The position numbers and the translations under genes were made by a program. The notes beneath the pieces were generated by a model, which was not told where the DNA came from, ran no database searches, and saw nothing but the letters and a program-made list of their open reading frames with translations. A stretch of 64,000 bases of DNA from Escherichia phage OliverMaurmann_Bas86, in the sequence record PQ850622.1, one strand, 5' to 3'. Positions 5,220 through 29,538 of this stretch are shown piece by piece. Position 1 is the first letter of the stretch, and the number at the start of each line of letters is the position of its first letter.

Positions 5220-6278
5220 ATGGCAAATCCAACTTTATTTGTATCGTACGACCAGAATGGTAAAAAACTTTCTTTTGCTAACTGGATTTCTGTCCTGTCT
5301 CCGCAAGACACTCCGTTTGTGTCTATGACTGGTAAAGAGTCTATTAACCAGACTATTTTCAGCTGGCAGACCGATGCTCTGGCGAGCGTAGATGCTAACA
5401 ACGCCCACGTCGAAGGCTCTCGTGCTGAAGACGGTGAAATGAAACCGACTGTAATCAAGTCCAACGTTACTCAGATTCTGCGTAAAGTTGTTCGTGTTTC
5501 TGATACTGCTAACACCACCGCTAACTACGGTCGTGGTCGTGAGCTGATGTATCAGCTGGAGAAGAAAGGTAAAGAGATTAAGCGTGACCTCGAGAAAATC
5601 TTGCTGTCCGGTCAGGCTCGTACCGACATTCTGGCAGACCAGTATCTGACTAACTCTGCAACTGATCCTGCTGTTGTAGGTCAGAACGATACTTCAGCTG
5701 CACGTAAGACTGGTGCTTTCCAGTTCCTGTGTGCACACAATGGTGTTGCTGGTGGTGTTGTTAAGAAAGAAGATGGTCCTGCTGACCCGGATACCGGTGC
5801 AGTAACTGTTAAAGTTGCACAGAATGCTTCTAACCCGACTTCTAACATCGGTTTTGATGAAGCTGACATCTTTGATATGACTCTGCAATTGTATACCGCT
5901 GGTTCTGAAGCAGACATCATCATGATTAACCCTGCTCACGCTAATATCTTTGCTAAGCTTCAGGAAAACTCTGTTGGTTCTCGTCAGCGTATCTTTGAGA
6001 ACACCAAACAGTTCATCTATGAAGTTAACAGCATCACTGACCCGCTGGGCCAGAGCTATAAAATCATCGTTAACCGTTGGATGCCTGCTGATGCAGTTTA
6101 CTTCTTCCGCAGCTCTGACTGGACTCAGATGGTTCTTCGTGCTCCGAAACGTACTGAACTGGCGAAAGATGGTTCTTACGAGAAATGGATGATCGAAATG
6201 GAAGTTGGTCTGCGTCACCGCAACCCGTATGCTTCCGGTGTACTGTTCACCGCTGCGGGAAAGGTGGAAGCGGCGTAA
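5220..6278 (+). CDS. Major capsid protein
   Basis: 352 aa ORF following scaffold; strong RBS (TAGGAGC); size and position typical of HK97-fold capsid protein. Confidence 0.8.
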   Translation: MANPTLFVSYDQNGKKLSFANWISVLSPQDTPFVSMTGKESINQTIFSWQTDALASVDANNAHVEGSRAEDGEMKPTVIKSNVTQILRKVVRVSDTANTTANYGRGRELMYQLEKKGKEIKRDLEKILLSGQARTDILADQYLTNSATDPAVVGQNDTSAARKTGAFQFLCAHNGVAGGVVKKEDGPADPDTGAVTVKVAQNASNPTSNIGFDEADIFDMTLQLYTAGSEADIIMINPAHANIFAKLQENSVGSRQRIFENTKQFIYEVNSITDPLGQSYKIIVNRWMPADAVYFFRSSDWTQMVLRAPKRTELAKDGSYEKWMIEMEVGLRHRNPYASGVLFTAAGKVEAA

Positions 6279-7642
6279 CAGTAGATTCCGTAACTGTTAG
6301 TCCTTCGTCGGTTGCAAGCCTTCCGACGGGGGCTACTCAGCAGTTTACAGCTACAGCAGAAATGAGCGACGGCTCCACAAGCACAACCGGATTTAATTGG
6401 TCCGTTGAAGGCGGTGGGGCTGTTTCTGTTTCTGGGCTATATACTGCACCGAGTGCGTCGCAAGAAACCCCAGCAACTATTACGGCAACTAAGGGCAGTA
6501 AAACAGGTACTGCTACAGTTCAATCTGTTTTTGAACCTGCTACTATCGAAGCTAAAGCCAACATCACAGGCAAGGTTGGTGGAAGCACTACAGCCTTTAC
6601 TACAATGTTCACATCAACTAATTCTTCGGCAGAAGATTATTCTTTTGTTGTGTCTCCAACATCAGCAGGAACTGTCAGTGCAGCAGGAGTTTTAACTTTG
6701 AGTAACAATGCAACAGGTACAGTTACTGTTAAAGCTACCCATAAAACTCAATCAGGAGTTGAAGCCACTGTAACCTTTACAGGTGTTGTTGCCAAAGCGG
6801 CTATTACTGGAAAAACAGTCACGGGTAAAATTGGGGGCGATACTGTTGCGTTTGCTGATCTATTTACAGCAACAAACTCTTCCGCAGCCAATTACAACTT
6901 CGTAGCTAACCCTTCTGGGATGACTACCTCTATCAACACTAACACTGGACTTGTTACTTTATCGGCTAATGCTACAGGTGATGTAACAATTACAGCTACC
7001 CACAAAACTCAAACCTCAGTTACTGCTACAGGGACCATCAGTGGTGTAGTCCCTAAAGCCACTATCACAGGTAAATCTCTTACCGGTAAAGTTGGTGGTG
7101 ATGTGATTCCTTTCGCGGACATGTTCACCAGTAACAAACCAGCATCAGAATTCAACTACGTGTTGACTCCGACTGGTGATGTAGGTGAAATTAACACTAC
7201 TACAGGTGCACTGACTCTCTTAGATGCTCCTACAGATGAGCTTATTAGTGTTAAAGCTACCCATAAAACTCAAACTTCTGTAACGGCAACCGCTACAATC
7301 ACAGCTACTCCGAAACTTACGGGCCTCGTTGCTTCTAGTGTTTCTAATACTGTGGTCGTAGGTGCTCCAGAGAACCCTCTTGCTACAGACTCCATCACAA
7401 TCACTGACTCTACTCAACCGGGTGTAGTTCGTTTTGATGGTGTACCTCAGGGTTCAGTAGTTGGTGCTCTGTCTTATGACGCAGAAGGTACTGATGTGGG
7501 TTTGATGGAAGTTGATTTAACAGGTCAGGTGTTGACAATCACTTTATCAGCTCCGATTACCAGTGAAGATACTAAAATCTCAATCAGAACTAACCCAGCC
7601 TCTACAATATTCCGTACTTATGTTGTCAAGTCTGGTGCTTAA
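5220..7642 (+). CDS. Capsid protein with C-terminal Ig-like (Big_2-type) extension, predicted product of -1 programmed ribosomal frameshift at GGGAAAG (6257-6263)
   Basis: Slippery heptamer G_GGA_AAG lies in the capsid frame 5 codons before its stop; the -1 frame is open to 7642 and encodes Ig-like repeats (VTVDSVTVSPSSV...TGATQQFTATAEMSDG...). Confidence 0.5.
6550..7320 (+). repeat. Three tandem coding repeats (~80-87 codons each) inside the Ig-like extension
   Basis: Protein repeats each ending ...ATHKTQ(S/T)(G/S)V(E/T)AT... and beginning (A/P)KA.ITGK...; in-frame, not CRISPR-like. Confidence 0.6.
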
Positions 7643-7647
7643 AACTA

Positions 7648-7675
7648 AGGCTGCCTTCGGGTGGCCTTTTCTCAT
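7648..7675 (+). terminator. Rho-independent terminator (UUCG tetraloop hairpin + T-run)
   Basis: AGGCTGCC-TTCG-GGTGGCCT followed by TTTTCTCATTTT, just after the Ig-extension stop. Confidence 0.55.
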
Positions 7676-7742
7676 TTTAAGACCCTTATAAGGAGATATG
7701 TAATGTATTCTCTTTGTCTATACACAACTAGGAGGACAAGTT

Positions 7743-8255
7743 ATGGCAATGCCTGACTTAAAGGGTGTTTTTACTTATAACCAAGACACTGGACACCTCT
7801 TTTGGTCTATGAGTAATGTTTATAATAAGAAGAAAGGACAGAGAGCTGGTTGCATTAATAACAAAGGCTACAGAGTTCTGACCTTTAAAAATAAATCTTA
7901 TTTAGAGCACAGAATCATTGCAGAGTTATTCTTACCTAAAGTGGAAGGAAAGAATCAGATTAATCATAAGAATGGGATTAAGGATGACAACCGCCTAGAA
8001 AACTTAGAATGGTGCACAGGTAGTGAGAACTGCTTACATGCTATTAGTATAGGTCTTAGAGAAGTGAAAAGTTTAGAGGAAAATCCAAACGCTAAACTTT
8101 CTAAAGAGGATGCTCTATTCTGTCTTCAGAACTATAAGCCTAGAAGCCGTCAGTTCGGAGCTAGAGCATTGGGTCGAAGATTTGGAGTATCTAAAAGTAC
8201 AATCAGCCTTCTTGTGAAAGGCGAAAACTGGAAGGAGTTATTATATGATGCCTGA
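7743..8255 (+). CDS. HNH homing endonuclease (HNH_3-type with N-terminal Y..DTG.L.W motif)
   Basis: 170 aa; motifs GYRVLTF...HRIIAELF...INHKNGIKDDNRLENLEW; preceded ~40 nt upstream by TAATGTATT. Confidence 0.8.
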   Translation: MAMPDLKGVFTYNQDTGHLFWSMSNVYNKKKGQRAGCINNKGYRVLTFKNKSYLEHRIIAELFLPKVEGKNQINHKNGIKDDNRLENLEWCTGSENCLHAISIGLREVKSLEENPNAKLSKEDALFCLQNYKPRSRQFGARALGRRFGVSKSTISLLVKGENWKELLYDA

Positions 8256-8997: not shown

Positions 8998-11568
8998 ATG
9001 ATCGTTTATAACAACCAAGCACCAGCTAATCCTAATAATGTTGGTCAGTTTGGTGCTACAGAAGGCTCTATCGGAGCCTATAAACAAGCAGCGGAATATG
9101 CTGCTGATTCTAAATATTGGGCACTTTTAGCAGAATCTAAGTTTGGGACAATTGATGACCTGATTGCACAGGTAGAGCGTCTATACCAACAAGGTGTTTT
9201 ACTCCGAGAAGATATTGAAGATCTGAAGCAGGATTTTGCTGCTCAAGACGTTCGCTTAATGAACCTGATTGCTCAAACAAACGCTGCTGTTGCAGATGCC
9301 AATAACTCAGTTGCACTTATTGATCAAAAGATTGTAGAAGTCCAGAAGCAATTGGATATTCTAATGGATATGAAGGTTACTGTCACTACCCTGCCTCCGG
9401 GTTCTCAAGCTACTGGCTCTTTTGATAACCAAACTGGTGAGATTAAGCTGGGAATTCCTGAGGGTGAAAAAGGTGCAGATGGCTCTGTAACTGACTTATC
9501 AACAGTATCTTCTGGGGTTCCCGAGTTAGGGGATTTAGGTTTTTATGTAGACAAAGATAATAACACTGTACATAAAACCACTCTAGAAAACATTGCTAAC
9601 CTGATTCCTTCTGTTCGCTCTATCTCTGTCAATGGTGGAGAGGCTCAGGATGGTGACGTTGCTTTGGATATTAATAAAACCACAGTGGGTTTAGGTAATG
9701 TTCTTAACGTAGCTCAATACAGTCGTCAAGAGATTAATGATAAGTTTGACAAACCTGTTAAGATTTATCAATCCAAAGCAGAAGCAGATGCAAATGCCCA
9801 ATATCGTCAAGAGGGTGAATCTGTTTTAGTTTGGGAAGATACTCGGTATGTGTTCTACACTGTTGCTGCGAATAAAACCTTAACTCCGGTTAAGTCGGAA
9901 AGTCGTATCTTGACAGTAAACTCAAGATCACCTGACTCTACAGGTAATATTGATATTACAATACCTACAGGGAACCCTTCTCTATATTTGGGTGAAATGG
10001 TAATGTTTCCATATGATCCTAATAAAACTGTATCATACCCCGGTGTGTTACCTGCTGATGGTCGGTTGGTTTCTAAAGAAAACGCCTCTGATTTAGGTCC
10101 ATCTCTTGTCAGTGGACAATTACCAGTAGTTAGCGAGACTGAATGGCAAGCTGGTGCTAAGCAGTATTTCTCTTGGGGTAAATTAGCTGATGGCGTTACT
10201 GATGCGGATTCTACTAACTACATCAATATTCGACTTCCTGATTGGACTGGAGGGGAGGCAATAAGAGCACCAGATTCTGATAAAGATTCTCAGTACAATG
10301 GGGCTGTACAAGCTCAGAAACCTTATGTTGTCACGGTAAATAACCAAACTCCTGATGAGATTACAGGGAACGTAAACCTCTCCAGATCTATCTTAGGAGC
10401 GGCTTCTTCTGGTGCAAACTCCGACATTACATCTTTATCTGGACTCACAACGCCGTTATCCATCTCTCAAGGCGGGACTGGATCTACAACCGTAGACGGG
10501 ATTCGTAATGCTTTAAAAATAACCCCATTTACCAGTGAAAATAATCACGCATTTATCTTCTCACCGAACTTGTTAAACAGGGCTGTGTTGAGGGATGATG
10601 GGTACTTTATCATACAAGAGAGAAGCAGTACCTCATCTGATAGCTGGGAGCCTAATCCGATATCTATAGAAGCGGGTGGTACTGGAGCATCTACAGCCAG
10701 TGAGGCACTTGTTAATCTTGGTTTAGGTCCAACAGCTACTCTCAACGTCATACCGGTTGCCAATGGCGGTACTGGAGCAACTAATGCTGCTGGCGCTCGT
10801 TATAATTTAGGATTGGGGAGCGTTTCTACTCTTGATAATGTACCAATCGCCAGCGGTGGTACAGGTGCTGGGGATGCCGCTGGTGCCCTAGGCAACCTTG
10901 GAGCATTGAGTAACACTCCAGCAAATACAGGTACAGGTGGTACTGGTGCGCGAGTCCAACATGCCGCCGGAAGTGGCCTGTTTACTTTAGACATGTTTAA
11001 CTGCTACTGGTATATGCAGCCAGAGGATACTAACTTCTGGGTTGCCCACGGTGTGTCATATGCAGGAGCTGGTGGCGAAGCCTCAGGTTATGGTCGTATA
11101 TCTTACGCAATAAAGATTGCAGATGGAACAACAAAATATGTCCATTGTCTTACAAACAAAAACACTATTATTGATACAGGCGGGTTTATCAAAGCGGCAT
11201 CTCCGGTAGTTAATATTTATGCCAACGGTCAATATGAAACGAATGATGAATCTGAGGGGGTTAGTGTCATCCGGCAGGGTATTGGTGAATATCTGATTAC
11301 TGGTTGCCTCGGTCTTAACTCTGATGCAAGATGGGGTGGGGTGGATGGTGGGTTTGAAATCCCAACAGATCGCAATAAGCAGCCTAGGATTTGGCTGGAC
11401 TATGAGGTTAAAGAAGATGGTTCTATTTCAGTTAAAACCTATCACAGAACTCACCCAACCTCTCCAGTTTTTGCTAGAAATGAGATAGAAGGTTTTGCTG
11501 ATGGAGACCCTATTGATATTCCAAGTGATGCTTTTATCTCTGTTCGTGTAGAGATGCCATCCAAATAA
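8998..11568 (+). CDS. Tail fiber protein with Gly-rich phage-fiber repeats
   Basis: 856 aa; N-terminal coiled coil; repeated (A/S)xGGTGA..A....NLG(L)G motifs in residues ~470-640. Confidence 0.65.
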   Translation: MIVYNNQAPANPNNVGQFGATEGSIGAYKQAAEYAADSKYWALLAESKFGTIDDLIAQVERLYQQGVLLREDIEDLKQDFAAQDVRLMNLIAQTNAAVADANNSVALIDQKIVEVQKQLDILMDMKVTVTTLPPGSQATGSFDNQTGEIKLGIPEGEKGADGSVTDLSTVSSGVPELGDLGFYVDKDNNTVHKTTLENIANLIPSVRSISVNGGEAQDGDVALDINKTTVGLGNVLNVAQYSRQEINDKFDKPVKIYQSKAEADANAQYRQEGESVLVWEDTRYVFYTVAANKTLTPVKSESRILTVNSRSPDSTGNIDITIPTGNPSLYLGEMVMFPYDPNKTVSYPGVLPADGRLVSKENASDLGPSLVSGQLPVVSETEWQAGAKQYFSWGKLADGVTDADSTNYINIRLPDWTGGEAIRAPDSDKDSQYNGAVQAQKPYVVTVNNQTPDEITGNVNLSRSILGAASSGANSDITSLSGLTTPLSISQGGTGSTTVDGIRNALKITPFTSENNHAFIFSPNLLNRAVLRDDGYFIIQERSSTSSDSWEPNPISIEAGGTGASTASEALVNLGLGPTATLNVIPVANGGTGATNAAGARYNLGLGSVSTLDNVPIASGGTGAGDAAGALGNLGALSNTPANTGTGGTGARVQHAAGSGLFTLDMFNCYWYMQPEDTNFWVAHGVSYAGAGGEASGYGRISYAIKIADGTTKYVHCLTNKNTIIDTGGFIKAASPVVNIYANGQYETNDESEGVSVIRQGIGEYLITGCLGLNSDARWGGVDGGFEIPTDRNKQPRIWLDYEVKEDGSISVKTYHRTHPTSPVFARNEIEGFADGDPIDIPSDAFISVRVEMPSK

Positions 11569-11611: not shown

Positions 11612-13759
11612 ATGTCTAGAGAATTAATGCCCAAATCTGGGATAATGATGCCTCACGTGGTAGTTACTAGAGATGCCGCAGTAGTGGGTGTATCTACTGT
11701 AGATGGGGCCGCTGGTGCTATCAACTTAACAGAAAAATACCTTCAGAAATCTGACGCTGAAGCAACCTATCAAACGAAAGCAGAAGGGGCTACTAAGCAA
11801 TATGTAACCGATGCTATTAACCCCATTATGACGAATGCTCTTTTTAAAGATGACCCCTTTGTCAATAATGACACACCTATCCGCTCCGGTGGTGGTAATG
11901 GTGTTGAATCGGTAGATATGATTAAAGTCACCCCTGAGAACACCATCAAACTAGGGAGCTATGCTTCTTCTGTTCAGGGGGTTGAGATTCATTCTGCTGG
12001 TCGTCTTCAGGTTGTTGATCAGAACGATTCTGGAGTCGAAACTAAATATCCGGTATACTCCAAAAGATATCGCCCAGAAGTTGAGGATTTACCTTTCGCT
12101 TCAATCGGTTCCTACGTCAAAGATTCCAAAGGACGCACTATTGGTGTAACTCGTACTGGTATCAACTCTGATATCAAACAGTTTACGCAGAAGGTAACTT
12201 TCCAGCAACCTGTTACTGTTCCTGATGCTGTAGGTGATTATGATGCAGTTACACTGAGACAGCTTCGTAACAGTAGTGGAGGTTCTGGTGGTCCTACCAT
12301 GAGCGGTATCTCCAACTTTGGTATTGGCGATTTCCATCTTCGTGATAGTCGTGCTTTTATCCCAGCTTTTGAAGTTTTGTCTGACGGGCAGCTTCTGAAT
12401 CGTGCTGACTACCCAGATCTGTGGGCTTATGCACAATTATTGTCACCTATAGAGGATTCAGAGTGGGTAGATGACATTTACCAACGAGGTAAATACTCTA
12501 AAGGAGATGGCTCCACTACTTTCCGTGTTCCAGACCGAAATGGTATTCAGCTTAACTCCCTTCCGGCGCTTTATGGACGAGGTGATGGTGGAGCTTCGGC
12601 TGCTAATGGTCTAATATTTGATGCTGCTGCTCCTAATATTTATGGGGATATTGGTGGTGTTGTTGCTTATGGTCAGACTGGAGCTATCGCCAGAGGGCAG
12701 GAAGAAACGGCTCTCGCCCCTCAACCTAGCACTGGTAATGGTGTCTTGAGGGTTAGTTTAAATGCCTCACTAGTCAGTCCTGTTTATGGTCGTTCCACTG
12801 ATGAAATCCTAACCCGTAACTTTGTAGGCGTTTGGACTATTCGTGCGCATGGTGGTTTTACTGCTGCTAATACTTCTTGGTCAGTTATTAATAGTGATGC
12901 AAACCGTCCTGCTGGTGGAACTCGAGCAACTAGTGGTTCTATTATTGCTGAATATAAAATTGGTTCAGAAGTAGAGGCTTCTACTACGCTCCAAACTGAT
13001 GCTTATATCGACGGAGCTTACTATGGGGTTATCAATGTTTATAATAAAACCAAAGGAGTTACCAAGCAACTATCTTTTGACGATTCTGGAACCCTGAACT
13101 CTGATAGATATGCTGCTCGGTTTGGGACATTGATGACTTGGAGCGAAACAGGAAGTCGCAGAGGTACTTTTTCTATAGACAACCAAGGGATAGGGACTAA
13201 CTTCTCCTTCAACTCCATACTAAGTGCCTCTCAAGCAACTAGTGGGGGGTACAAAACTACCACCCATGTTGGCATGATTCACAACGATACTGGATCTTTT
13301 GCTGATTCCTGCTGGCATGTTGCAGGGGATGAAGACAACAAATACGGTTGTCGTTTAACCCTTAGACCAAGCAGGAATGAGATTTATTACTACACTTGGC
13401 AGCCCGGCTCCACTGGAACTTACACTCTTGCTATGAATCCTGTGTCAGATGAAAGGTTGAAACACAACATTCAAGACCTCTCGCCTGATGAAGCAATTCG
13501 TGCGATTAAAGGTTTGGACTTCAAATCGTTTGTGTACAACAATGATAATCAAGGAAGAACTCGTCGTGGTATCATTGCACAGCAGGCAGAGAAAGTTGAA
13601 CCTCTTTATGTTAAAACTCGTAAATTCCATGACAACGATGGGGTAGAGCAGGAACAGAAAGAGTTGGATGCAACTCCAATGCTTTTAGATACCATGCAGG
13701 TTGTTCAAGATCTGCTGAAGCGTATTGAAGTTCTAGAAGCGAAGTTAGCAGAGAAGTGA
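11612..13759 (+). CDS. Tail fiber/spike protein with C-terminal intramolecular chaperone (peptidase S74-like) domain
   Basis: 715 aa; C-terminal ...NPVSDERLKHNIQDL...GLDFKSFVYN...GIIAQQAEKVEPLYV... resembles the auto-cleaving chaperone domain of endosialidase-type fibers. Confidence 0.7.
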   Translation: MSRELMPKSGIMMPHVVVTRDAAVVGVSTVDGAAGAINLTEKYLQKSDAEATYQTKAEGATKQYVTDAINPIMTNALFKDDPFVNNDTPIRSGGGNGVESVDMIKVTPENTIKLGSYASSVQGVEIHSAGRLQVVDQNDSGVETKYPVYSKRYRPEVEDLPFASIGSYVKDSKGRTIGVTRTGINSDIKQFTQKVTFQQPVTVPDAVGDYDAVTLRQLRNSSGGSGGPTMSGISNFGIGDFHLRDSRAFIPAFEVLSDGQLLNRADYPDLWAYAQLLSPIEDSEWVDDIYQRGKYSKGDGSTTFRVPDRNGIQLNSLPALYGRGDGGASAANGLIFDAAAPNIYGDIGGVVAYGQTGAIARGQEETALAPQPSTGNGVLRVSLNASLVSPVYGRSTDEILTRNFVGVWTIRAHGGFTAANTSWSVINSDANRPAGGTRATSGSIIAEYKIGSEVEASTTLQTDAYIDGAYYGVINVYNKTKGVTKQLSFDDSGTLNSDRYAARFGTLMTWSETGSRRGTFSIDNQGIGTNFSFNSILSASQATSGGYKTTTHVGMIHNDTGSFADSCWHVAGDEDNKYGCRLTLRPSRNEIYYYTWQPGSTGTYTLAMNPVSDERLKHNIQDLSPDEAIRAIKGLDFKSFVYNNDNQGRTRRGIIAQQAEKVEPLYVKTRKFHDNDGVEQEQKELDATPMLLDTMQVVQDLLKRIEVLEAKLAEK

Positions 13760-13763
13760 GATA

Positions 13764-13783
13764 AGCCCCTTCGGGGGCTTTTA
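13764..13783 (+). terminator. Rho-independent terminator (GCCCC-TTCG-GGGGC + TTTT)
   Basis: Read directly after tail fiber stop. Confidence 0.6.
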
Positions 13784-13848
13784 GGAGTGAAACTGGTGAA
13801 TAAGTAATGAAACTACTATATCCAAAAGGAAAATGAAAGGAGAAGAAA

Positions 13849-14067
13849 ATGAAAATGATGAAACAGGTAACTTATGGTCTAGCTTGCTTAGGGACAGGTT
13901 TTGTGATTTCCACAGCAGTACCTGTAAATGCAGTAGGCTCTCATTCTATTATAGAAGCTCCTGTAGAGAAGCTTAGTTCTCAATGTAAACAAAGGACCAT
14001 TCAAAATAATTTGGTTGTTATTTGCCCAGACGCTCAATCTTCAGCTCTGAGAAAAATTCTTCCTTAA
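13849..14067 (+). CDS. Small protein with one N-terminal hydrophobic segment; holin candidate or secreted periplasmic protein
   Basis: 72 aa; MKMMKQ then ~20 hydrophobic residues, possible cleavage at VNA/VG; two Cys in C-terminal part; directly upstream of lysozyme gene. Confidence 0.4.
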   Translation: MKMMKQVTYGLACLGTGFVISTAVPVNAVGSHSIIEAPVEKLSSQCKQRTIQNNLVVICPDAQSSALRKILP

Positions 14068-14100
14068 TTGACCTAAAATAACAACAAAAGGAGGTCAAAG

Positions 14101-14592
14101 ATGGACGCTATCGCATTGCCGCCTGTACAGATGAGCCTAAGTCCGGCTGGTATGGAGTTTATCATGAAGCATGAAGGCATGAGAACTAAAGCCTATAAAG
14201 ACTCCGCTGGAATCTGGACTATATGTGTAGGGGCTACGCGCGATATGAATGGGTATCCAGTAAGACAAGGATTAACGTATTCTATAGAGGATTGTCTAGC
14301 TCTGCTAGATAGAGACACACAAGACTCTGTTCGTGCTACTCAGAAAAACATAAGAGTTCCTATGCTAGCTCATGAATTTGATGCTGTCACTTCTTTCAAC
14401 TTTAATGTTGGTGGTGGTGCTTTGTCAGCTTCAAAACTTAGGAAAGTGATCAACGGAGATGTGAAGGGTGATGTTTACTCAGAGTTCTTACGTTGGGATA
14501 AGATAACTGTTAAAGGTGTAAAGCAGCGGAGTCCGGGACTTCACAATCGCAGGGTTGCAGAAGCAAATCTATACACTACAGGAAAATATTAA
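14101..14592 (+). CDS. Endolysin, T4-type lysozyme (GH24-like)
   Basis: 163 aa; FIMKHEGMRTKAYKDSAGIWTICVG matches the E...G...Y.D..G..TIG.G lysozyme signature; no N-terminal hydrophobic segment. Confidence 0.85.
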   Translation: MDAIALPPVQMSLSPAGMEFIMKHEGMRTKAYKDSAGIWTICVGATRDMNGYPVRQGLTYSIEDCLALLDRDTQDSVRATQKNIRVPMLAHEFDAVTSFNFNVGGGALSASKLRKVINGDVKGDVYSEFLRWDKITVKGVKQRSPGLHNRRVAEANLYTTGKY

Positions 14593-14604
14593 TGGAGGTG
14601 CCTT

Positions 14605-15408
14605 TTGGCTATCGAAACAACTGCGGTAGTTACTACCGATTTAAACCCCCTATACCCACGGGACAGGGACTACCTTTATGAAGGGGCTGCCCAGATACGA
14701 CTGGTCAAACAAGTCTTAATTAACACTTTCCCTAACATCACAGAGCCGGTTCAACTTGACTCAGATTCTTTCAACATCCTAGCAAACAAGGTCTCTTTTA
14801 CTGGAGACTCTATGGACGTTGGTGGTTTGATGATTAAGAACCTAACTCCGGGAACTGGTGATAAAGATGCTGTAACCAAAGGTCAGATGGAAGCTTTCAT
14901 GTTGAATTGGATGCAAAATAAACTATACCGTATTGGTTCTTATTACATCACTGAGGAAGATATTAATCCGGGAGACTCCAGCTCTCTTGGCTTCGGTTCT
15001 TGGGCTAAAGTAACTGGTGTTGTTATGGGTACTGGTGTTGTTAACCCTGACGGTTCTGTTCCTAACGCCCAGCGTGTGGAATTCCAAGCAGGTGGTACAG
15101 GAGGTCGTGTATTCAACACAATCCGTGCTGATAATATGCCTCTTACTACAATCAATGGTTCTAGTTTCCAAGTCAGTTCTTATTCCCACTCGCACAACAT
15201 CACGATGGGTCGAGGTGATGCTAGTGGTCACAATAGCAGCCCTAATTGGTATAGTCCGGGTGGTGGTTACACTCAGGTAACTGACACCAACACTCACTCC
15301 CACTCAATCACAGGTTCTGTTAGTTTTGGGCGTGATGATGTATCAAGACAACCTATCAACACTTTGCCGCCTTTCAGAGCAGCGCATATTTGGAGACGTA
15401 TTAGCTAA
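14605..15408 (+). CDS. Tail fiber-like protein with HxH motifs (putative receptor-binding tip)
   Basis: 267 aa; apparent TTG start with GGAGG 7 nt upstream; two HSH motifs (SYSHSHNIT, THSHSITG). Confidence 0.45.
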   Translation: MAIETTAVVTTDLNPLYPRDRDYLYEGAAQIRLVKQVLINTFPNITEPVQLDSDSFNILANKVSFTGDSMDVGGLMIKNLTPGTGDKDAVTKGQMEAFMLNWMQNKLYRIGSYYITEEDINPGDSSSLGFGSWAKVTGVVMGTGVVNPDGSVPNAQRVEFQAGGTGGRVFNTIRADNMPLTTINGSSFQVSSYSHSHNITMGRGDASGHNSSPNWYSPGGGYTQVTDTNTHSHSITGSVSFGRDDVSRQPINTLPPFRAAHIWRRIS

Positions 15409-15417
15409 GGAGGAATC

Positions 15418-18400
15418 ATGGCGCTTTATCCAATAAAATCTTTAGGGGCTGTAGGGGTTATTGCTGACCAAGCTCCAACTGATTTAGCACCTAATGCTTT
15501 CACTAATGCTATCAATGCCCGCTTTGTAGAGCAAAGAGTTTTTAAGACGGGGGGCAATGCCCCTCTTTCTTATGTAGAAGAAGATAAAGAGATTACACCA
15601 CTCTCTTTTATCTCAATGCCTTTTGACTACTACAGTGCAGGTAATAGCTTTCTGGTTGTTGGTACAGACAAAAAGCTATATAAGTTGACAGATGAAAGCT
15701 TGACAGATATCAGCCGTAAGGTTGCCACTGTCACAAAAAGAGCTTCTGCTTCTATTAAGATTTATCCGGTTGTTTCTCAGATTGTTCCTAAAGAGACTTC
15801 CATTTCAATGAATTTCAACCAAACTAAAACTTTGGAAGTTTCTGTTCTTCCGGAAGATGCTAATAATACATCTCTGGTTTGGGAAGTCAGTAATTCCTCT
15901 TATGGTAAGGTAGAGGTTGATCCTAGTAATCCTAAAATTGCAACTCTAACTTCTTATGAAAGAGAGGGGAATTTAGTAGTCACTGTATCAACAGCCGATG
16001 AATCTATCAGCGCTCAGATTGCAGTAAACATTATAGATGGTGATTCTGGTATCTTCTTAAGCCAAGACACAATAACCGTTCGTAAAGGTGGTAACACTAC
16101 AATAACTGCTGTTACTGGAAAAACCCCTGTAACTTGGACTTCTAGTAACAATTCAATCCTCTCCATCACACCGAACACTAACACACTAACGGCATCCTTA
16201 TTTGCAAATGGAGAAGGCAGTGTTACTGTAACAGCGGATAATGGCGTGAAGAGTGCTTCGTGCCAAGTTAATGTTATACCACAGATTGACAGCATCACTC
16301 TAAGTCAGACTGATGTCCAAATGAGCAGAGGTACTCAGTACGTCCTGACTGCTACAGTTAATCCTTCAGATGCTCCTAATAAGACGATAACTTGGACTTC
16401 CTCTAACCCTAATATTGCTACAGTTTCCGGAAACAGTACAGAAGCAGTAATCACTGGACTACTTGCTGGGTTTACTGAAATCACAGCTGTTACCCAAGAA
16501 GGAAATAGAGCAGCAACTTGTACGGTAAGGGTAGACCTAGGTGGAAGAATGATGCGAACTTCTGCAATGTCTTTTTCGGAACCTATGGTTAAGGAGGTAC
16601 AGTCAGAGGTTGACAATACCTATGCCCCTGCTGAAACAGAAGAGGTTTTGTATTTTGTAAGTGAGCCTTCTGGTATAGACACTTCAGGTATGTACGAAGG
16701 GAACAACTTCTACGACTACTCAAACGTCAATGACATGGAAGGTTTTGCACGGGCTGCACTTTTGGCTAACGATGCTCCTTTACAGTCGCTCTCTTTAGAT
16801 ATTATTAATGCATCCCTTGATGTTGGAGAAGACATTGTAATCACAGCTAATGCTTTACCTGAGGGAGAGTATTTCTACCAGTGGACAGTAGACAAAGCAG
16901 GTTATGTTTCAACTACATCTACTACTGGAAAATCTCTAAAACTGACAGCTATTCGTAAAGGTGAGATCAAAGTTACTTGTACTGCTAGTCAAATGACTCA
17001 GAAAGATTATGATGCTTTTGACGACTATCCTTGGTATCACACCATAATCTCTAACTGTGCAGTGGCTACCACTCATTATGAAACACCACAGGTCAAAGAG
17101 TTTGAATCTGAGTATTTCGTAGATCTTCCGGGATGGGGTGAGCAAACAGTCGTTGATAATGATGGCAATCCTTCTGTTAAGAAATTTAACTGGAAGTGTG
17201 AGCGTATTCGTGCATTCAACAACAGACTTTTTGCTCTGAATATGAGGGAATCTAATGCATCTGGTGTAACTACTCACTACCCTCTAAGACTTCGGTGGTC
17301 GAATTTCGCTAACGAAAACAAAGCTCCATCTCTTTGGGATGATTATGCTTATGATCGTTTAACAACTTCAGACCTATCAGCAAACATTGTTGGTCAAACT
17401 GAGGCTTTGGAAAATGGGTACGCTGGGTATATAGATTTAGCAGATTCTAACGGAAGTTTGATTGATGTACTTCCTCTGAAAGATTACCTTTTTGTTTACA
17501 CGGAGTTCGAAACCTACATTGGTTCTCCAACCAATAACACATATCAGCCCCTTATGTTTAAGAAGCTGTTTAATGACTCTGGCATACTTGCTCCTGAGTG
17601 TGCAGTTGAAGTCGAAGGTGGACACTTCGTAGTAACTCAAAATGATGTGATCTTACATAATGGTGCATCTAAAAAATCTATAGCATCTAACCGAGTCAAG
17701 AATCTTCTCATTAATGAGATCTGTCTAGTAAACCCTCTAGCTACTAGAGTTCACCTACACCAAGACAAGAAAGAGGTTTGGGTTTTATATGTAGGTCCGG
17801 GAGAGCCTAAAGAGAGTTTTGCTTGTAATAAAGCCGCTGTTTGGAATTATGAGTTTGACACTTGGTCTTTCCGTACAATACCATATGCTCAGTGTATTGG
17901 GTTAGTCGATCCACCAGTTCTTGAGAGAGGTCCAATCTGGGCAGATTTTCAAGAGATCACTTGGGATGATCCCTCTATTAACCAATTAGTCTGGAGAAAG
18001 GATGCTAATAACTTCCGTCAAAGGATTACAATAGTTGGCTCTTTCCTGAAGGGATTCTATCAAGTGGATGTTGGTGCTCTGGACTACATCTATGATAGAA
18101 CCAATGATAGGATTATAGAAAAACCTTTAGAAATGAGGCTAGAAAGAACTGGTATTGATTTTGATAATGTCACTAATGAGTGGAATCAAAAACATATTAA
18201 TAGATTTAGACCTCAAGTTACTGGTACAGGTACTTATACTTTTGAAGTCGGTGGAAGTCAATTCTCAAACGAGTATGGACACAATCACTCAACTAAAGAG
18301 TTTAGGGTAGGCTCAGATCGTCATGTATCCGTGAGACTGAACCATCCATACCTATTCTATAATGTTATAGATAATGATGTTAACAGTAATGCTTCTATGA

Positions 18401-18441
18401 ATGGTTTAACCATAGAGTTTAGTGTTGGCGGTCGAAGATAA
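15418..18441 (+). CDS. Large tail structural protein with Ig-like (Big_2) domains
   Basis: 1007 aa; residues ~120-370 contain tandem Ig-like segments. Confidence 0.55.
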   Translation: MALYPIKSLGAVGVIADQAPTDLAPNAFTNAINARFVEQRVFKTGGNAPLSYVEEDKEITPLSFISMPFDYYSAGNSFLVVGTDKKLYKLTDESLTDISRKVATVTKRASASIKIYPVVSQIVPKETSISMNFNQTKTLEVSVLPEDANNTSLVWEVSNSSYGKVEVDPSNPKIATLTSYEREGNLVVTVSTADESISAQIAVNIIDGDSGIFLSQDTITVRKGGNTTITAVTGKTPVTWTSSNNSILSITPNTNTLTASLFANGEGSVTVTADNGVKSASCQVNVIPQIDSITLSQTDVQMSRGTQYVLTATVNPSDAPNKTITWTSSNPNIATVSGNSTEAVITGLLAGFTEITAVTQEGNRAATCTVRVDLGGRMMRTSAMSFSEPMVKEVQSEVDNTYAPAETEEVLYFVSEPSGIDTSGMYEGNNFYDYSNVNDMEGFARAALLANDAPLQSLSLDIINASLDVGEDIVITANALPEGEYFYQWTVDKAGYVSTTSTTGKSLKLTAIRKGEIKVTCTASQMTQKDYDAFDDYPWYHTIISNCAVATTHYETPQVKEFESEYFVDLPGWGEQTVVDNDGNPSVKKFNWKCERIRAFNNRLFALNMRESNASGVTTHYPLRLRWSNFANENKAPSLWDDYAYDRLTTSDLSANIVGQTEALENGYAGYIDLADSNGSLIDVLPLKDYLFVYTEFETYIGSPTNNTYQPLMFKKLFNDSGILAPECAVEVEGGHFVVTQNDVILHNGASKKSIASNRVKNLLINEICLVNPLATRVHLHQDKKEVWVLYVGPGEPKESFACNKAAVWNYEFDTWSFRTIPYAQCIGLVDPPVLERGPIWADFQEITWDDPSINQLVWRKDANNFRQRITIVGSFLKGFYQVDVGALDYIYDRTNDRIIEKPLEMRLERTGIDFDNVTNEWNQKHINRFRPQVTGTGTYTFEVGGSQFSNEYGHNHSTKEFRVGSDRHVSVRLNHPYLFYNVIDNDVNSNASMNGLTIEFSVGGRR

Positions 18442-18447
18442 CAAATA

Positions 18448-18475
18448 GGGGCTTCGGCCCCTTTTATTGTTTTTA
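18448..18475 (+). terminator. Rho-independent terminator (GGGGC-TTCG-GCCCC + TTTTATTGTTTTT)
   Basis: Read directly after 1007-aa gene stop. Confidence 0.6.
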
Positions 18476-18488
18476 ATTGGAGGTACTT

Positions 18489-19457
18489 ATGGGTGCTGGA
18501 GGTTTTCGAAAGAATACTGGTAGAAACAACACCACACTTCCGTACAATGTTGGTTTTCTAAACAATGTGCAGGATACAGAAACTTACAACGTTGCCGTCT
18601 ATGATGAACTACAAAAAGTTAGTACAGCAACTAATCAGATGTTTCAAGCCATTGATGAAATACATGAAGAAATTGATGTTAGGATTAAAGCTCTTAATGC
18701 AATGAATCTTCAATTTGATGAACTTGAAAACAGAATTACTACAGAGATCGAAACAGCTATTGCTGACATTCAAACACAGATGGGCAATCTGTCCACTGAA
18801 GATATTTGGGATAATTCAGTACAACCGCCAGTTAAGCTAGAAAGTTCTATGGCAGGGTTTAAAACTTCTATAGAAGGTAATGAGGTTAAGATACAGTCTG
18901 TTGAGGGAATCGTAAACCAGCAGGGAGAGGAAATTGGCTTAGTTCAAACAGAGATCTCCAACATTAACAGCAGTCTATCTTCTTATATGAAGCTATCTGA
19001 CTACGAAGCTACGTGGGGAATTAACTCAAACGTCAACGGCAGGTATGCTGGTGTCAAACTAACTAACAACGGCACGAATAGTCAGTTCCAAGTTACAGCT
19101 GATAAGTTTGTTGTAGGTGATGGTAACTCGGGTAATACACCTTTTGTGTTTGAAGGAGGTCGAGCTAAGATAGAGTTTGCTGATATTAAGAACGTCAATA
19201 TCACAACTGCTCAAATTGCTAATGCTCGTATTCAGTTTGCTCAAATAGATAACGTGTGGATTACTGATGGTCAGATTGCCAATCTTACAGCTAACAAGAT
19301 CACTGCTGGCTCTATGAGTGGTTCAAACTGGAGACTTACTGTTGGTGGGGATTTTGTGATGGGTGGCACAGGTGGGGCACAGCTCTGGATGAATGGTAAT
19401 AGAATTGATTTCTATGATGGGAGCGGTGCACTGAGAATCAGAATAGGGAGTTGGTAA
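18489..19457 (+). CDS. Virion structural protein (putative tail component)
   Basis: ORF track starts at TTG 18477; ATG at 18489 has GGAGG 5 nt upstream, so the ATG start is preferred; N-terminal coiled coil. Confidence 0.5.
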   Translation: MGAGGFRKNTGRNNTTLPYNVGFLNNVQDTETYNVAVYDELQKVSTATNQMFQAIDEIHEEIDVRIKALNAMNLQFDELENRITTEIETAIADIQTQMGNLSTEDIWDNSVQPPVKLESSMAGFKTSIEGNEVKIQSVEGIVNQQGEEIGLVQTEISNINSSLSSYMKLSDYEATWGINSNVNGRYAGVKLTNNGTNSQFQVTADKFVVGDGNSGNTPFVFEGGRAKIEFADIKNVNITTAQIANARIQFAQIDNVWITDGQIANLTANKITAGSMSGSNWRLTVGGDFVMGGTGGAQLWMNGNRIDFYDGSGALRIRIGSW

Positions 19458-28000: not shown

Positions 28001-29538
28001 AAGTTGGTCAAATGAAGGATGTGTGGGATGGGTTTATTAATACCTATAACCGAGAAGTTAACATGTTCAACAAGGCTAACAAGAACTCTCAATACGAAGC
28101 AGCGGCTAAACACTTGCAAGCACGTCAAGAACGTCTTGAGACGCTCCGTAACAGAGCTAAGGCTCGTAATGATGCCAAGGCAGCTATGGAAGCTGAAAAG
28201 CAGTCATTGGAAGCTATAGCGGCTCAGAAATCCGAGATGGAGAAGATGTTCAAAGAGTTGCCTGAAAGTGTCAGAGAAGCTCAGGAAGGTCGTACTTTGA
28301 AACAGCTTGCTGCTCACCACGATAAAAACTCTCCAGTACCACCAGAGCGTTTCCGTAGTATTATTGAACGTATTCACAACGCTGAGAGTGATTACCTCGA
28401 TCGCAAACGTCGTTTGACCGAAGCAGAGGAAGATGCTCGTGAGGCTAAGTGGAATAGGATGTATGAACAGGCTGAGGAAATGAACCGTAGGTTTGATATT
28501 GATTCTAGAGTGAAGAGAGACAAGGCTCTGAAAGAAGCTCAGGAACGAGAGAATGACCTAATGGCAGTTCAACGTCAACGTGATGACATTCATAAACGTT
28601 TAGTCAACACTCTGGAAGAGAAGGGGGTTTCTAGAGAGGATGCTGAAGCGTATGCTGGTTCTTATATGGACAATCGGTATGCTTTGTTAGAGAAACCTAT
28701 GACTCCAGTGGAACATCAGAATGCTCGTGCTCGTATCGAATCTGACGTAGAGAAGTTTGTTAAGAAGTATGAAACAGCTACTCCAATCGAAAGAGAGATT
28801 GCTAAGGCAACTGGTGATGCAGATGGGAAAGCTTCTGACCTTGATGCAGAAACAGCAAAAGCTATCGAAGATGCTCGTAAAGTTGATTCTGATTTTAAGA
28901 AACTTTTAGATGAAGAGAAAGAAATGGAGAAGATTCGTTCGGCTCTACCTGAGGATGAAAGATCTCAGGCTAACTCTGATATTCTTGAAAGTATTAAGAA
29001 GCAGGAAGATGACTTTGCTAACAAAGCAGAGAAAGCTTTTATTGAAGGGAAAGACTTGCAGGAGTTGGCGAGTGTTGCAGAGGTTCTAGATAGGGTTCAT
29101 GGTGCAGATAAGGCTGGTAACAACCGTCGATTTGTACGTGCTCTACAGACTGCTGCTGAGAACAAGAAACGTTATGGAGATAATCCAGTGGCTTGGTTTA
29201 GTGCTGATGATTATTCTGCTATTGCGAAACTTGGTGCTGCTTCGGCAGGTGGTAACAAATCTCGAGCACTTGAGAAAATCTTTGGTTCTACAGCAGAACA
29301 AGCTAAAGGGAAACTTTTAGGGAGGGATGATGTAGCTAAGATTAGACGTGTGATTGAAGCGAATCCTAATGCTAAGATTCCTTCTTACAAGACAACTACT
29401 CGACAAGAGTATTTACAGTTCTTGGAGAAGTATAATGATGAGGGAGAGTTGAAAGTCAAACGTGGTTCTCTGTCTGACAAGTTAGAAAGGGGTAAGCGTC
29501 AAGCTAAACTTCGTGTTAGAGTTCGAGCTAAGGAGTAA
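25093..29538 (+). CDS. Large internal virion/ejection protein (putative)
   Basis: 1481 aa; Gly/Ala-rich N-terminal region, long E/K/A/R-rich coiled-coil middle; last gene of + strand block. Confidence 0.5.
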   Translation: MANLKSWEEASKAPAYLNASPEQQAQMREQYKAAGGTIPETQPQEQPQQEERGVIGEFAQGVSNALQSGGANIAASAAKGLGGLVEIGENLTGSETSYGKRIQENSKQLLEERLSKIEDGFGKTAGQYAGVAADIGLTVANPAVAAAVIAARETGRAYADQTPKEDEDKSILDAALVGGANYAAQKILPGMTGTASTTLGRVGQSVASNAVAGAKGGAIVGAAEAQNKYGDDTTLANVLEGAIEEGALGAAYGGAIGGVHGLISRPSPQVFDRTPEHVKTDIAAEDEAIRKAANADELREAYAKAENANAASALNLLDENGFRITDAVAMDSPAVQRILNTDQNRAEKAATVQKDSSNVPGLNPLASPKKTQGKAFADNEYNQKQAVAMKDAMADYTKDNTKALTDVLDNLDRELVALRASGDFTGSAIDIKNRTQADRDFIDAYKTFYSEANRFKARDGEDLNNFIDKATQLQKLSENVSPEMKKAIGGLKKLKGMPEGFNPIQDAFTLNNTAKFMSNQDRGWTSLTDDGFREAPAPVLVKNPLGAAKYVLNRFTSDRARAQREKQQSANSEAIRSLARADLEVQRARTQAEEARAKMEEEPTTEDIKFRTQNDAPSEPVREEPSATTVTEEIPSSPAPTETPLTARDLVAQRRALQQAELRRQETEAAQAQESATPEPEPQQEALTARELVAQRRAVAEAKKRQEAEEAERAKEAPEEAVEEPKEKPEPLPARAPKAPEKAPEPVKPSLGVERLASMSTAARQATKDRADRFARSLYSAAAKAKATAENFLSYKGDPKELMRRIRQEDQANNTQRHEEMARNQLASQQGIASAKSQHVRASFADWVKERGLPSDIATKALRAEEKGLGGNVTSLDSLKRRAERLYQKQRDDEFDRLYREALEENKAFDKKDAPKLVDQKKELQDEIGTLLDAEPLRPAQKDAMRKIMEDFVESKFKSSEKAGRVEALEVGQMKDVWDGFINTYNREVNMFNKANKNSQYEAAAKHLQARQERLETLRNRAKARNDAKAAMEAEKQSLEAIAAQKSEMEKMFKELPESVREAQEGRTLKQLAAHHDKNSPVPPERFRSIIERIHNAESDYLDRKRRLTEAEEDAREAKWNRMYEQAEEMNRRFDIDSRVKRDKALKEAQERENDLMAVQRQRDDIHKRLVNTLEEKGVSREDAEAYAGSYMDNRYALLEKPMTPVEHQNARARIESDVEKFVKKYETATPIEREIAKATGDADGKASDLDAETAKAIEDARKVDSDFKKLLDEEKEMEKIRSALPEDERSQANSDILESIKKQEDDFANKAEKAFIEGKDLQELASVAEVLDRVHGADKAGNNRRFVRALQTAAENKKRYGDNPVAWFSADDYSAIAKLGAASAGGNKSRALEKIFGSTAEQAKGKLLGRDDVAKIRRVIEANPNAKIPSYKTTTRQEYLQFLEKYNDEGELKVKRGSLSDKLERGKRQAKLRVRVRAKE

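Follow-up and report, generated by a model that had tools for sequence, protein, structure and literature searches.

Tail fibre proteins (distal long fibre and short fibre) of the SU10/SU7-related podophage OliverMaurmann_Bas86

Introduction

An adsorption apparatus of the kind described here is that of phage SU10, for which the rearrangement of the nozzle is known from a combined cryo-EM and cryo-ET study (Siborova et al. 2022; PMC9509320). In SU10, a gp12 trimer holds the long tail fibre on the adaptor, and its distal half is made of gp13 (PMC9509320). In phage EP335, gp13 cleaves itself after Ser621 (Ser621-Asp622), as measured by LC-ESI-MS, and a GFP fusion of this protein binds O157 and O26 cells in an O-antigen-dependent manner (PMC8217332). 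The Gordonclarkvirinae are dependent on the O-antigen. Two receptor-binding domains (RBDs), a Gp12-like RBD1 and a T5-like RBD2, have been defined in these fibres by the BASEL paper of Humolli et al. 2025 (PMC11990801). In the more distant T5 pb1, the receptor site is masked by an intramolecular chaperone until cleavage, and the uncleaved form cannot bind the receptor (PMC4690869). The scissile bond is reported differently in the two systems: before the serine in T5 pb1 (PMC4690869) and after it in EP335 (PMC8217332). Autoproteolysis, cell binding and nozzle rearrangement were all demonstrated by others, in orthologues of the proteins considered below. The present analysis establishes the homology of these proteins, the limits of their domains, the conservation of their residues and the start codon of the short fibre gene.

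Genomic context

We analysed a window of 64,000 nucleotides from Escherichia phage OliverMaurmann_Bas86 (PQ850622.1); all coordinates refer to the + strand. The window belongs to a Gordonclarkvirinae (Suseptimavirus-like) E. coli podophage; over 25 kb, its identity is 96% with Bas87 and 94% with SU7. The gene order is identical in eight relatives (SU7, SU10, ES17, XT18, EP335, EK010, Bas94 and Bas87). An ORF check found the four open reading frames of positions 11612-15408 exactly where an earlier sequence-only reading had placed them, and the inferences of that reading on both proteins are supported by the tool results and by the literature on orthologues. This region encodes the Kuravirus-type distal long tail fibre and the short tail fibre of an SU10/SU7-related E. 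coli podophage. Between the two fibre genes are found a holin (13849-14067, 72 aa; phrog_11161, E=1e-40), syntenic in all relatives compared, and an endolysin of the phage lysozyme type (14101-14592, 163 aa; Pfam Phage_lysozyme, E=9.6e-31; phrog_7 endolysin). The holin thus lies within 11612-15408 while standing outside the receptor-binding apparatus. We are highly confident that the region codes for both adsorption organelles of a Gordonclarkvirinae podophage, with the lysis cassette between them, including the whole of the mechanism proposed in the following sections.

Architecture of the long tail fibre

The 715-aa protein (11612-13759, ATG start) is the orthologue of SU10 gp13, EP335 gp13 and phiEco32 gp15, and it matches the tail fibre family phrog_6921 over its full length (E=4.8e-262). 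Its orthologues are 63-93% identical to it. The protein is the distal half only of the long fibre. Its proximal partner is an 856-aa protein encoded just outside the region (8998-11568), which matches SU10 gp12, annotated 'putative tail fiber' (PDB 7z47_D, E=0 over residues 1-496), and carries a Pfam Phage_tail_C_2 domain at residues 722-855. The distal protein would trimerise and join this proximal protein, itself held on the adaptor. The proximal partner was missing from the sequence-only reading, as were the second receptor-binding domain of the distal fibre and the part of the short fibre in nozzle formation.

The distal protein contains two receptor-binding domains and not one: RBD1, a T5-like RBD2 and a chaperone follow each other in a single polypeptide, i.e. 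the dual-RBD 'T-shaped' fibre. The N-terminal shaft and attachment region (aa 1-230; 11612-12301) is conserved, with a majority-residue conservation of 0.77-0.98 across 38 orthologues and 86-99% identity to SU7, SU10, EP335, EK010, Bas94 and Bas87. It is followed by the gp12-like RBD1 (aa ~231-430; 12302-12901), which we assigned by homology to the published exemplars Bas94 and Bas87. The Pfam Collar match in this domain is weak and below cut-off (residues 294-310, E=0.0011); in EP335 gp13, residues 236-422 are predicted to be similar to the T4 gp12 tip (PMC8217332). Within RBD1, conservation among the 38 orthologues falls to 0.46-0.57 in a variable sub-region (aa 331-390), and the identity of aa 331-430 among relatives ranges from 0.47 to 0.92, independently of RBD2. 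The T5-like RBD2 (aa 431-612; 12902-13447), which ends at Ser612 (codon 13445-13447), is hypervariable: conservation is just 0.39-0.40 over aa 451-600 in the same 38 orthologues.

Compared with SU10 gp13 and EP335 gp13 (PMC8217332, PMC11990801), the protein has the same conserved N-terminus, gp12-like RBD1, T5-like RBD2 and Ser/Lys chaperone, and differs from them in its RBD2, which is 23% identical to each, versus 87-93% to SU7, Bas94, Bas87 and EK010. From this divergence we infer that the receptors of OliverMaurmann_Bas86 are probably different from those recognized by SU10 and EP335. Over all regions of the protein, identity to the exemplars is 87-95% for Bas94 and 63-99% for Bas87.

The closest receptor-binding domains are spread as a mosaic over SU7, Bas94, Bas87 and EK010. 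For RBD1 the resemblance is to SU7 and Bas94, for RBD2 and the chaperone it is to Bas87 and EK010, and the modules recombine independently among relatives.

Outside the podophages, fibre residues 204-714 align to residues 560-1071 of the DT57C-type L-shaped tail fibre (8hqz_d, E about 1e-97 to 2e-105). T5 pb1 and DT57C LtfA (4UW7/4UW8, PMC4690869; 8HQZ chain d) share with this protein O-antigen binding and a C-terminal chaperone with a Ser-x4-Lys dyad. However, the siphophage fibre is one chain of 1076-1396 aa, whereas it is here split into 856 + 715 aa on a podophage adaptor.

Chaperone module and predicted self-cleavage of the distal fibre

The C-terminal module of the distal fibre (aa 613-715 plus stop codon; 13448-13759) is a true intramolecular chaperone of the S74 type, as the sequence-only reading had recognized. 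The Pfam Peptidase_S74 domain (PF13884) was found on residues 612-665 (E=1.2e-13, 51.6 bits for a cut-off of 22 bits), and in all orthologues; the match starts at SDERLKHNIQDL, the sequence cited in that reading. Moreover, Ser612 and Lys617 (codon 13460-13462) are invariant in 38/38 orthologues and Asp613 is nearly so, next to the hypervariable stretch of RBD2. Their spacing is that of the T5 dyad Ser1264/Lys1269, i.e. Ser-x4-Lys (PMC4690869).

Structure prediction, which had been suggested as a check, was informative for this module but less so for the rest, the monomer models of the two proteins being of low confidence overall (pLDDT 58 and 47). In the AF2 model of the fibre, pLDDT reaches 82-89 over most of aa 621-715, with one 10-residue block at 61, and is below 50 in the monomer upstream of Ser612, where the Arg/Asp 'folding sensor' of this family, donated by an adjacent chain to form the oxyanion hole, would lie. 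The module shows an alpha/beta fold followed by a long C-terminal coiled-coil helix (residues 687-714), and Foldseek with the chaperone sub-model retrieved 7DC3 (E=1e-5, TMt 0.60-0.63) and 3GW6 (E=3e-4). At the profile level, the chaperone matched 7dc3, 8jov, 6f45 and 3gud. The module is therefore similar in HMM and fold to the chaperones of the K1F endosialidase, the GA-1 neck appendage and MyRF (3GW6, 3GUD, 7DC3; PF13884), although the passenger that precedes it has no relation to theirs, being a fibre tip in this protein and a sialidase beta-helix or a transcription factor in the others.

The 103-residue chaperone would drive the trimeric folding of the T5-like tip that precedes it, then excise itself by means of the Ser612/Lys617 dyad, leaving a mature fibre with an unmasked tip. 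Autoproteolysis would most likely take place at the Ser612-Asp613 bond; EP335 Ser621 and SU10 Ser618 align to Ser612. The predicted products of the 77.5 kDa uncleaved fibre are a mature fibre of 65.6 kDa and a released 103-aa fragment of 11.9 kDa. The same calculation applied to the 108-aa fragment of EP335 gp13 gives 11,838 Da, equal to the published loss of 11.8 kDa. With the chaperone region of EP335 gp13, whose cleavage was measured, that of the present fibre shares only 36-39% identity, and it is from such orthologues that we infer processing in OliverMaurmann_Bas86 itself. In a rival reading, the fibre keeps its S74 module and stays full length in virions, the C-terminal domain then acting as a permanent structural cap or as part of the binding surface. 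Two observations go in this direction: the relative Bas93 copes with the loss of a large part of its chaperone domain, and SU10 gp13 was found in virions by MS with no report of its size or processing (PMC9509320). We nevertheless regard a retained module as very improbable, given the invariance of Ser612/Lys617 beside a hypervariable region, the LC-ESI-MS result on EP335 gp13 (PMC8217332) and the inability of uncleaved T5 pb1 to bind its receptor (PMC4690869).

Short tail fibre and nozzle

The 267-aa protein encoded after the lysozyme (14605-15408) had been described as fibre-like from its sequence; it is in fact the orthologue of the SU10 short tail fibre gp16. Its residues 1-267 match residues 1-267 of 7z47_I with 83% identity (E=4.3e-157), and it belongs to phrog_6465 (E=2.6e-107). 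The Pfam domain Gp10_C (PF21939) was detected on residues 105-266 (E=4e-10, 41.2 bits for a cut-off of 27 bits; profile positions 3-139 of 139), and also in 25/25 full-length short-fibre homologues. In the window and in the eight relatives, the gene lies between the endolysin and nozzle genes. The likeness to SU10 gp16 (PDB 7Z47/7Z4B/7Z4F chain I; PMC9509320) extends to the length, the gene position, the TTG start, the Tyr-x-Tyr dock residues and the two histidine pairs. The differences are point substitutions only, e.g. Ile24 to Leu, or HTH to HSH in the second histidine motif, and the architecture is the same.

The TTG start proposed for this gene is genuine. Reading the sequence directly, we found a Shine-Dalgarno motif GGAGG (14594-14598) separated by a 6-nt spacer from the TTG (14605-14607); no other start codon occurs from the in-frame stop (14590-14592) up to the conserved N-terminus. 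The same codon is TTG in SU7, SU10, ES17 and XT18, and ATG in EP335 and EK010. In addition, the N-terminus of SU10 gp16 was built in the map, and contacts made by its residues 3-6 are seen in the cryo-EM model (PMC9509320).

The docking partner of the short fibre is the nozzle protein encoded immediately downstream, outside the region (15418-18441, 1007 aa). It matches SU10 gp17 (7z47_G) over its full length (E=0) and carries three Big_2 domains. The elements of the dock are conserved on both sides: the residues Y23-L24-Y25 are present in the short fibre, and the dock-loop tryptophans W839, W847 and W857 of the SU10 nozzle align to W841, W849 and W859. By analogy with SU10, the short fibre would trimerise, and its N-terminal helical domain (Tyr23-Leu24-Tyr25) would attach it to the nozzle at the tryptophan dock loop. 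Once the long fibre binds, it would swing by ~135 degrees and alternate with the straightened nozzle domains to give a nozzle of ~28 nm, the formation of which would carry the needle-like tip of the short fibre to the outer membrane.

Both proteins had been put forward as receptor-binding candidates. EP335 gp13, the orthologue of the distal fibre, binds cells. The short fibre, which shows high conservation and also builds the extended nozzle, may therefore be more mechanical than host-range determining. It is vertically inherited, being 99% identical to that of phage 4E8, whose distal fibre is only 64% identical. In SU10 the nozzle is assembled from short fibres and nozzle proteins in alternation (PMC9509320), and a 'more mechanical role' was proposed by the BASEL authors (PMC11990801). 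A short fibre that is mainly a mechanical part of the nozzle, without receptor binding, would leave host specificity to the long fibre alone. We consider this rather unlikely: the SU10 authors find the tip similar to known receptor-binding needles, the tips arrive at the outer membrane when the nozzle forms (PMC9509320), and the conservation would equally be explained if the receptor were itself conserved, for instance the LPS core, as for T4 gp12 (PMC11990801).

Histidine motifs of the short-fibre tip

Two HSH motifs had been noticed in the short fibre, and both are present and conserved in homologues. The first, His195-Ser-His197 (15187-15195), corresponds to SU10 His194/196 and the second, His231-Ser-His233 (15295-15303), to SU10 His230/232. 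H195/H197 are invariant, being found in 20/20 homologues with identity down to 51%, and H231/H233 are found in 19/20. Such a pattern is improbable by chance, since at least two HxH motifs were obtained in 0.4% of composition-preserving shuffles. In the tip of the AF2 monomer model, which is of low confidence overall, both motifs are carried by the two long beta-strands. The SU10 and BASEL papers both call the HxH pairs probable metal sites (PMC9509320, PMC11990801), and SU10 His194/196 were proposed to bind Fe2+ (PMC9509320). In a trimer, two HxH pairs from each of the three chains would probably give two metal sites, each octahedral and made of six histidines, which would rivet the intertwined tip in the manner of T4 gp37.

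The likeness to the C-terminal domains of T4 gp37 and gp12/gp10 (2XGF, 1H6W/1OCY, 2FKK) concerns the HxH motifs on an intertwined trimeric beta-structure and the Gp10_C match, but T4 gp37 has seven HxH motifs versus two here. The SU10 authors judged the tip structurally similar to a T4-type needle from a trimer model, the gp16 tip being an AlphaFold model fitted into 7-15 Å density (PMC9509320). In our searches, no gp37 or gp12 chain was matched by the short-fibre family profile at E<=10, and Foldseek with the low-confidence monomer model gave no significant match to T4 gp10-C (2FKK, E=0.24) or JUB59 (6OV6, E=2.5). These negative results, together with the lack of the second pair in one of the 20 homologues (P0025), count in favour of HxH pairs without metal, conserved because they pack or make hydrogen bonds within the intertwined beta-needle, or because they touch a receptor or the membrane. 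We hold this to be unlikely, in view of the shuffling result and the near-invariance of the motifs, and of their position on tip beta-strands, which the SU10 and BASEL authors describe as the geometry of T4 gp37 and JUB59 (PMC9509320, PMC11990801).

Two further ideas can be mentioned, which are jointly very improbable and neither of which is positively supported. The combination of RBD1 and RBD2 could give a dual-glycan specificity new among the characterised relatives and, separately, the putative metal sites of the short fibre might, beyond a static rivet function, control the deployment of the nozzle, for example as a checkpoint that responds to redox state or chelation.

Conclusion

The self-cleaving chaperone and the histidine pairs have both already been published for close relatives, and nothing in them is new here; the finding is therefore correct but ordinary, and it matters little beyond correct annotation. 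The question of metal on the HxH pairs of the short fibre concerns the whole subfamily and not OliverMaurmann_Bas86 in particular. The annotation is now precise, with a proximal long fibre, a self-cleaving distal fibre (predicted bond Ser612-Asp613), a short fibre starting at TTG and a nozzle protein. These genes set adsorption and host range in phages studied for therapy and biocontrol (SU10, ES17 and EP335).

Two tail fibre genes flanking a lysis cassette

Both proteins proposed by the sequence-only reading as receptor-binding candidates were found, and its interpretation is supported. A fibre with a self-cleaving chaperone, a short fibre with HxH motifs and receptor-binding roles have all been described for close orthologues, and this first account was incomplete rather than wrong. 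On the basis of megablast, we assign the window to the Gordonclarkvirinae, a group of E. coli podophages with prolate heads (phiEco32, SU10 and SU7 type). Its first 25 kb share 96% identity with Bas87 and 94% with SU7, and identity to SU7 is 92% across 11612-15408. According to the ORF list, four + strand genes lie within this region, encoding the distal long tail fibre (715 aa, 11612-13759, ATG start), a holin (72 aa, 13849-14067; phrog_11161, E=1e-40), an endolysin of the phage lysozyme type (163 aa, 14101-14592; Pfam E=9.6e-31) and the short tail fibre (267 aa, 14605-15408, TTG start). An 856-aa ORF (8998-11568) precedes the long-fibre gene and the gene of the nozzle protein (1007 aa, 15418-18441) follows that of the short fibre. 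The gene order is the same in SU7, SU10, ES17, XT18, EP335, EK010, Bas94 and Bas87; the holin and endolysin genes (13849-14592) are kept between the two fibre genes in all eight relatives examined. A sigma-70 promoter scan of 8.5-19 kb gave no signal (21 sites vs. 21.9 expected) and hence no support for the promoters placed upstream of the fibre and short-fibre genes in the SU7 record.

Several other features of the window were observed. Six nucleotides past the nozzle gene stop, a GC-rich hairpin (AGGGGCTTCGGCCCCT), strong and bidirectional and with a T-run after it (18447-18462), is likely an intrinsic terminator separating the nozzle gene from the tail-needle gene. The first possible start listed for the tail needle gene (326 aa, 18477-19457; Pfam Phage_Tail_Tip, E=8e-26) is a TTG, as in the short fibre gene. 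Directly after the major capsid gene (5220-6278), whose 3' end it overlaps in another frame, a 485-aa ORF with Big_2 Ig-like domains (6185-7642, + strand) is followed by an unassigned gap (7642-8245). At this position SU7 has an Ig protein of only 170 aa and SU10 one of 132 aa, so that an enlarged Ig-domain protein, possibly for decoration, or an insertion may be present in this phage. Finally, the sign of the GC skew flips near 30 kb, where the + strand structural genes, which run from the terminase (position 1) to a 1481-aa ORF ending at 29538, give way to - strand genes.

The distal long tail fibre and its chaperone

The 715-aa fibre matches phrog_6921 over its whole length (E=4.8e-262) and Pfam Peptidase_S74 at residues 612-665 (E=1.2e-13, well over the curated cut-off), the latter match beginning exactly at SDERLK, the string from which an S74-type chaperone had been proposed. 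Hundreds of orthologues are present in the protein database, all with PF13884. Across 38 aligned orthologues (56-93% identity), Ser612 and Lys617, the predicted cleavage dyad, never vary and Asp613 hardly does. Conservation in this profile is about 0.8-0.98 over residues 1-330, drops to about 0.5 over residues 331-390, is about 0.4 in the hypervariable residues 451-600 and reaches 0.55-0.7 in the chaperone module. The monomer AlphaFold2 model of the fibre scores low overall but reaches a pLDDT of 82-89 over most of residues 621-715; this confident sub-model matches the intramolecular chaperone auto-processing domain of MyRF (7DC3, E about 1e-5, TM 0.6) and the chaperone of the K1F endosialidase (3GW6). 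Further hits of the family profile are 6F45, 8JOV and 3GUD. The C-terminal S74-type chaperone is thus well established. The monomer models of both fibre proteins were poor overall (pLDDT 47 for the long fibre and 58 for the short fibre), and only this module and parts of the two receptor-binding domains were usable; such scores are expected for intertwined trimers modelled as monomers.

Cleavage has been measured in an orthologue. In EP335, gp13 forms SDS-resistant trimers and loses 11.8 kDa by LC-ESI-MS, which was assigned to cleavage at Ser621/Asp622 (Witte et al., PMC8217332); the calculated mass of the fragment after Ser621 is 11,838 Da. EP335 Ser621 and SU10 Ser618 both align to Ser612, and cleavage of the window fibre there is predicted to yield products of 65,557 Da (residues 1-612) and of 11,948 Da (residues 613-715). 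The exact scissile bond is given with caution, because in T5 pb1, whose receptor site is masked by the uncleaved chaperone, cleavage was placed before the serine (PMC4690869). For SU10 gp13 (723 aa), the 'long tail fiber distal part' joined to the proximal protein gp12, six trimers and detection in virions by MS are reported; 3GW6, 6F45, 6EU4 and 3GUD are listed as structural homologues and processing is not discussed (PMC9509320). We searched the supplement of that paper for a gel size of gp13 that would reveal processing, and only the MS detection is stated.

The receptor-binding role proposed for the fibre is also supported: GFP-gp13 of EP335 binds O157 and O26 cells (PMC8217332), and Gordonclarkvirinae phages are O-antigen-dependent (PMC11990801). 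The proposal was incomplete: the long fibre is built from two proteins, of which the 715-aa one supplies only the distal half, and this half bears two receptor-binding domains. This 'T-shaped' distal fibre comprises a gp12-like RBD1, a T5-like RBD2 and the chaperone domain (PMC11990801). The SU7 and Bas94 fibres are about 90% identical to the window fibre in every region, whereas those of EK010 and Bas87 share its RBD2 and chaperone (87-99%) but differ in part of RBD1 (47-63%), and those of SU10 and EP335 are only 23% identical in RBD2. Region by region, these identities correspond to the expected modular mosaic.

The short tail fibre

The proposed TTG start of the short fibre is secure. The short fibre shares its frame with the endolysin stop TAA (14590-14592), the TTG at 14605 is the sole start codon before codon 70, and a GGAGG lies 6 nt upstream. 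The same position holds TTG in SU7, SU10, ES17 and XT18 and ATG in EP335 and EK010, and in the SU10 cryo-EM structure contacts are modelled for gp16 residues 3-6 (PMC9509320). The possibility that the TTG is mis-called and translation begins at the next ATG (codon 70) was rejected, the 69 N-terminal residues being highly conserved and built in the SU10 map.

The protein belongs to phrog_6465, matches Pfam Gp10_C at residues 105-266 (E=4e-10) and is matched end to end by SU10 gp16 (cryo-EM entries 7Z47, 7Z4B and 7Z4F; E=4.3e-157, 83% identity). SU10 gp16 is a short tail fibre, present as six trimers, that docks through Tyr23, Ile24 and Tyr25 onto the tryptophan loop of the nozzle protein; once the long fibres have bound, the short fibres turn through about 135 degrees and, in alternation with nozzle domains, build a 277 A nozzle (PMC9509320). 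The window short fibre retains Y23-L24-Y25 and the window nozzle protein all three tryptophans. The fibre-like nature read from the sequence holds through this orthology; in addition, the protein forms part of the structure of an extendable nozzle.

We also observed that the first 60 or so residues of the short fibre (14605-14790, aa 1-62) share homology with two other N-termini, that of the tail fibre of Pseudomonas phage Pa223 (9NXK, profile E=1.8e-9) and that of 8ZKK gp13 (E=0.019). Both phages have beta-propeller nozzle proteins (9NWI, 8ZKK/8ZKM) related to that of the window (15418-18441). Together, these likenesses suggest a fibre-anchor and nozzle docking module common to distant podophage groups.

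The two HSH motifs were found at residues 195-197 and 231-233. At least two HxH motifs occur in only 0.4% of shuffles of the protein; the first His pair is kept without change by all 20 homologues, down to 51% identity, and the second by 19. For SU10, both pairs were proposed as Fe2+ ligands like those of T4 gp37 and JUB59, the gp16 tip having been modelled with AlphaFold and fitted into density of 7-15 A (PMC9509320). When the family profile was searched against all PDB sequences (E<=10), no T4 gp37, gp12 or gp10 chain was retrieved, only SU10 gp16 and the N-terminal anchor homologues. What supports the 'T4-type' link is therefore the Pfam Gp10_C model, together with the published trimer models. 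Foldseek matches of the low-confidence monomer model to 2FKK (T4 gp10-C) and 6OV6 (JUB59) were not significant and are not counted as evidence. Putative metal binding by the HxH pairs is a question that concerns the whole subfamily.
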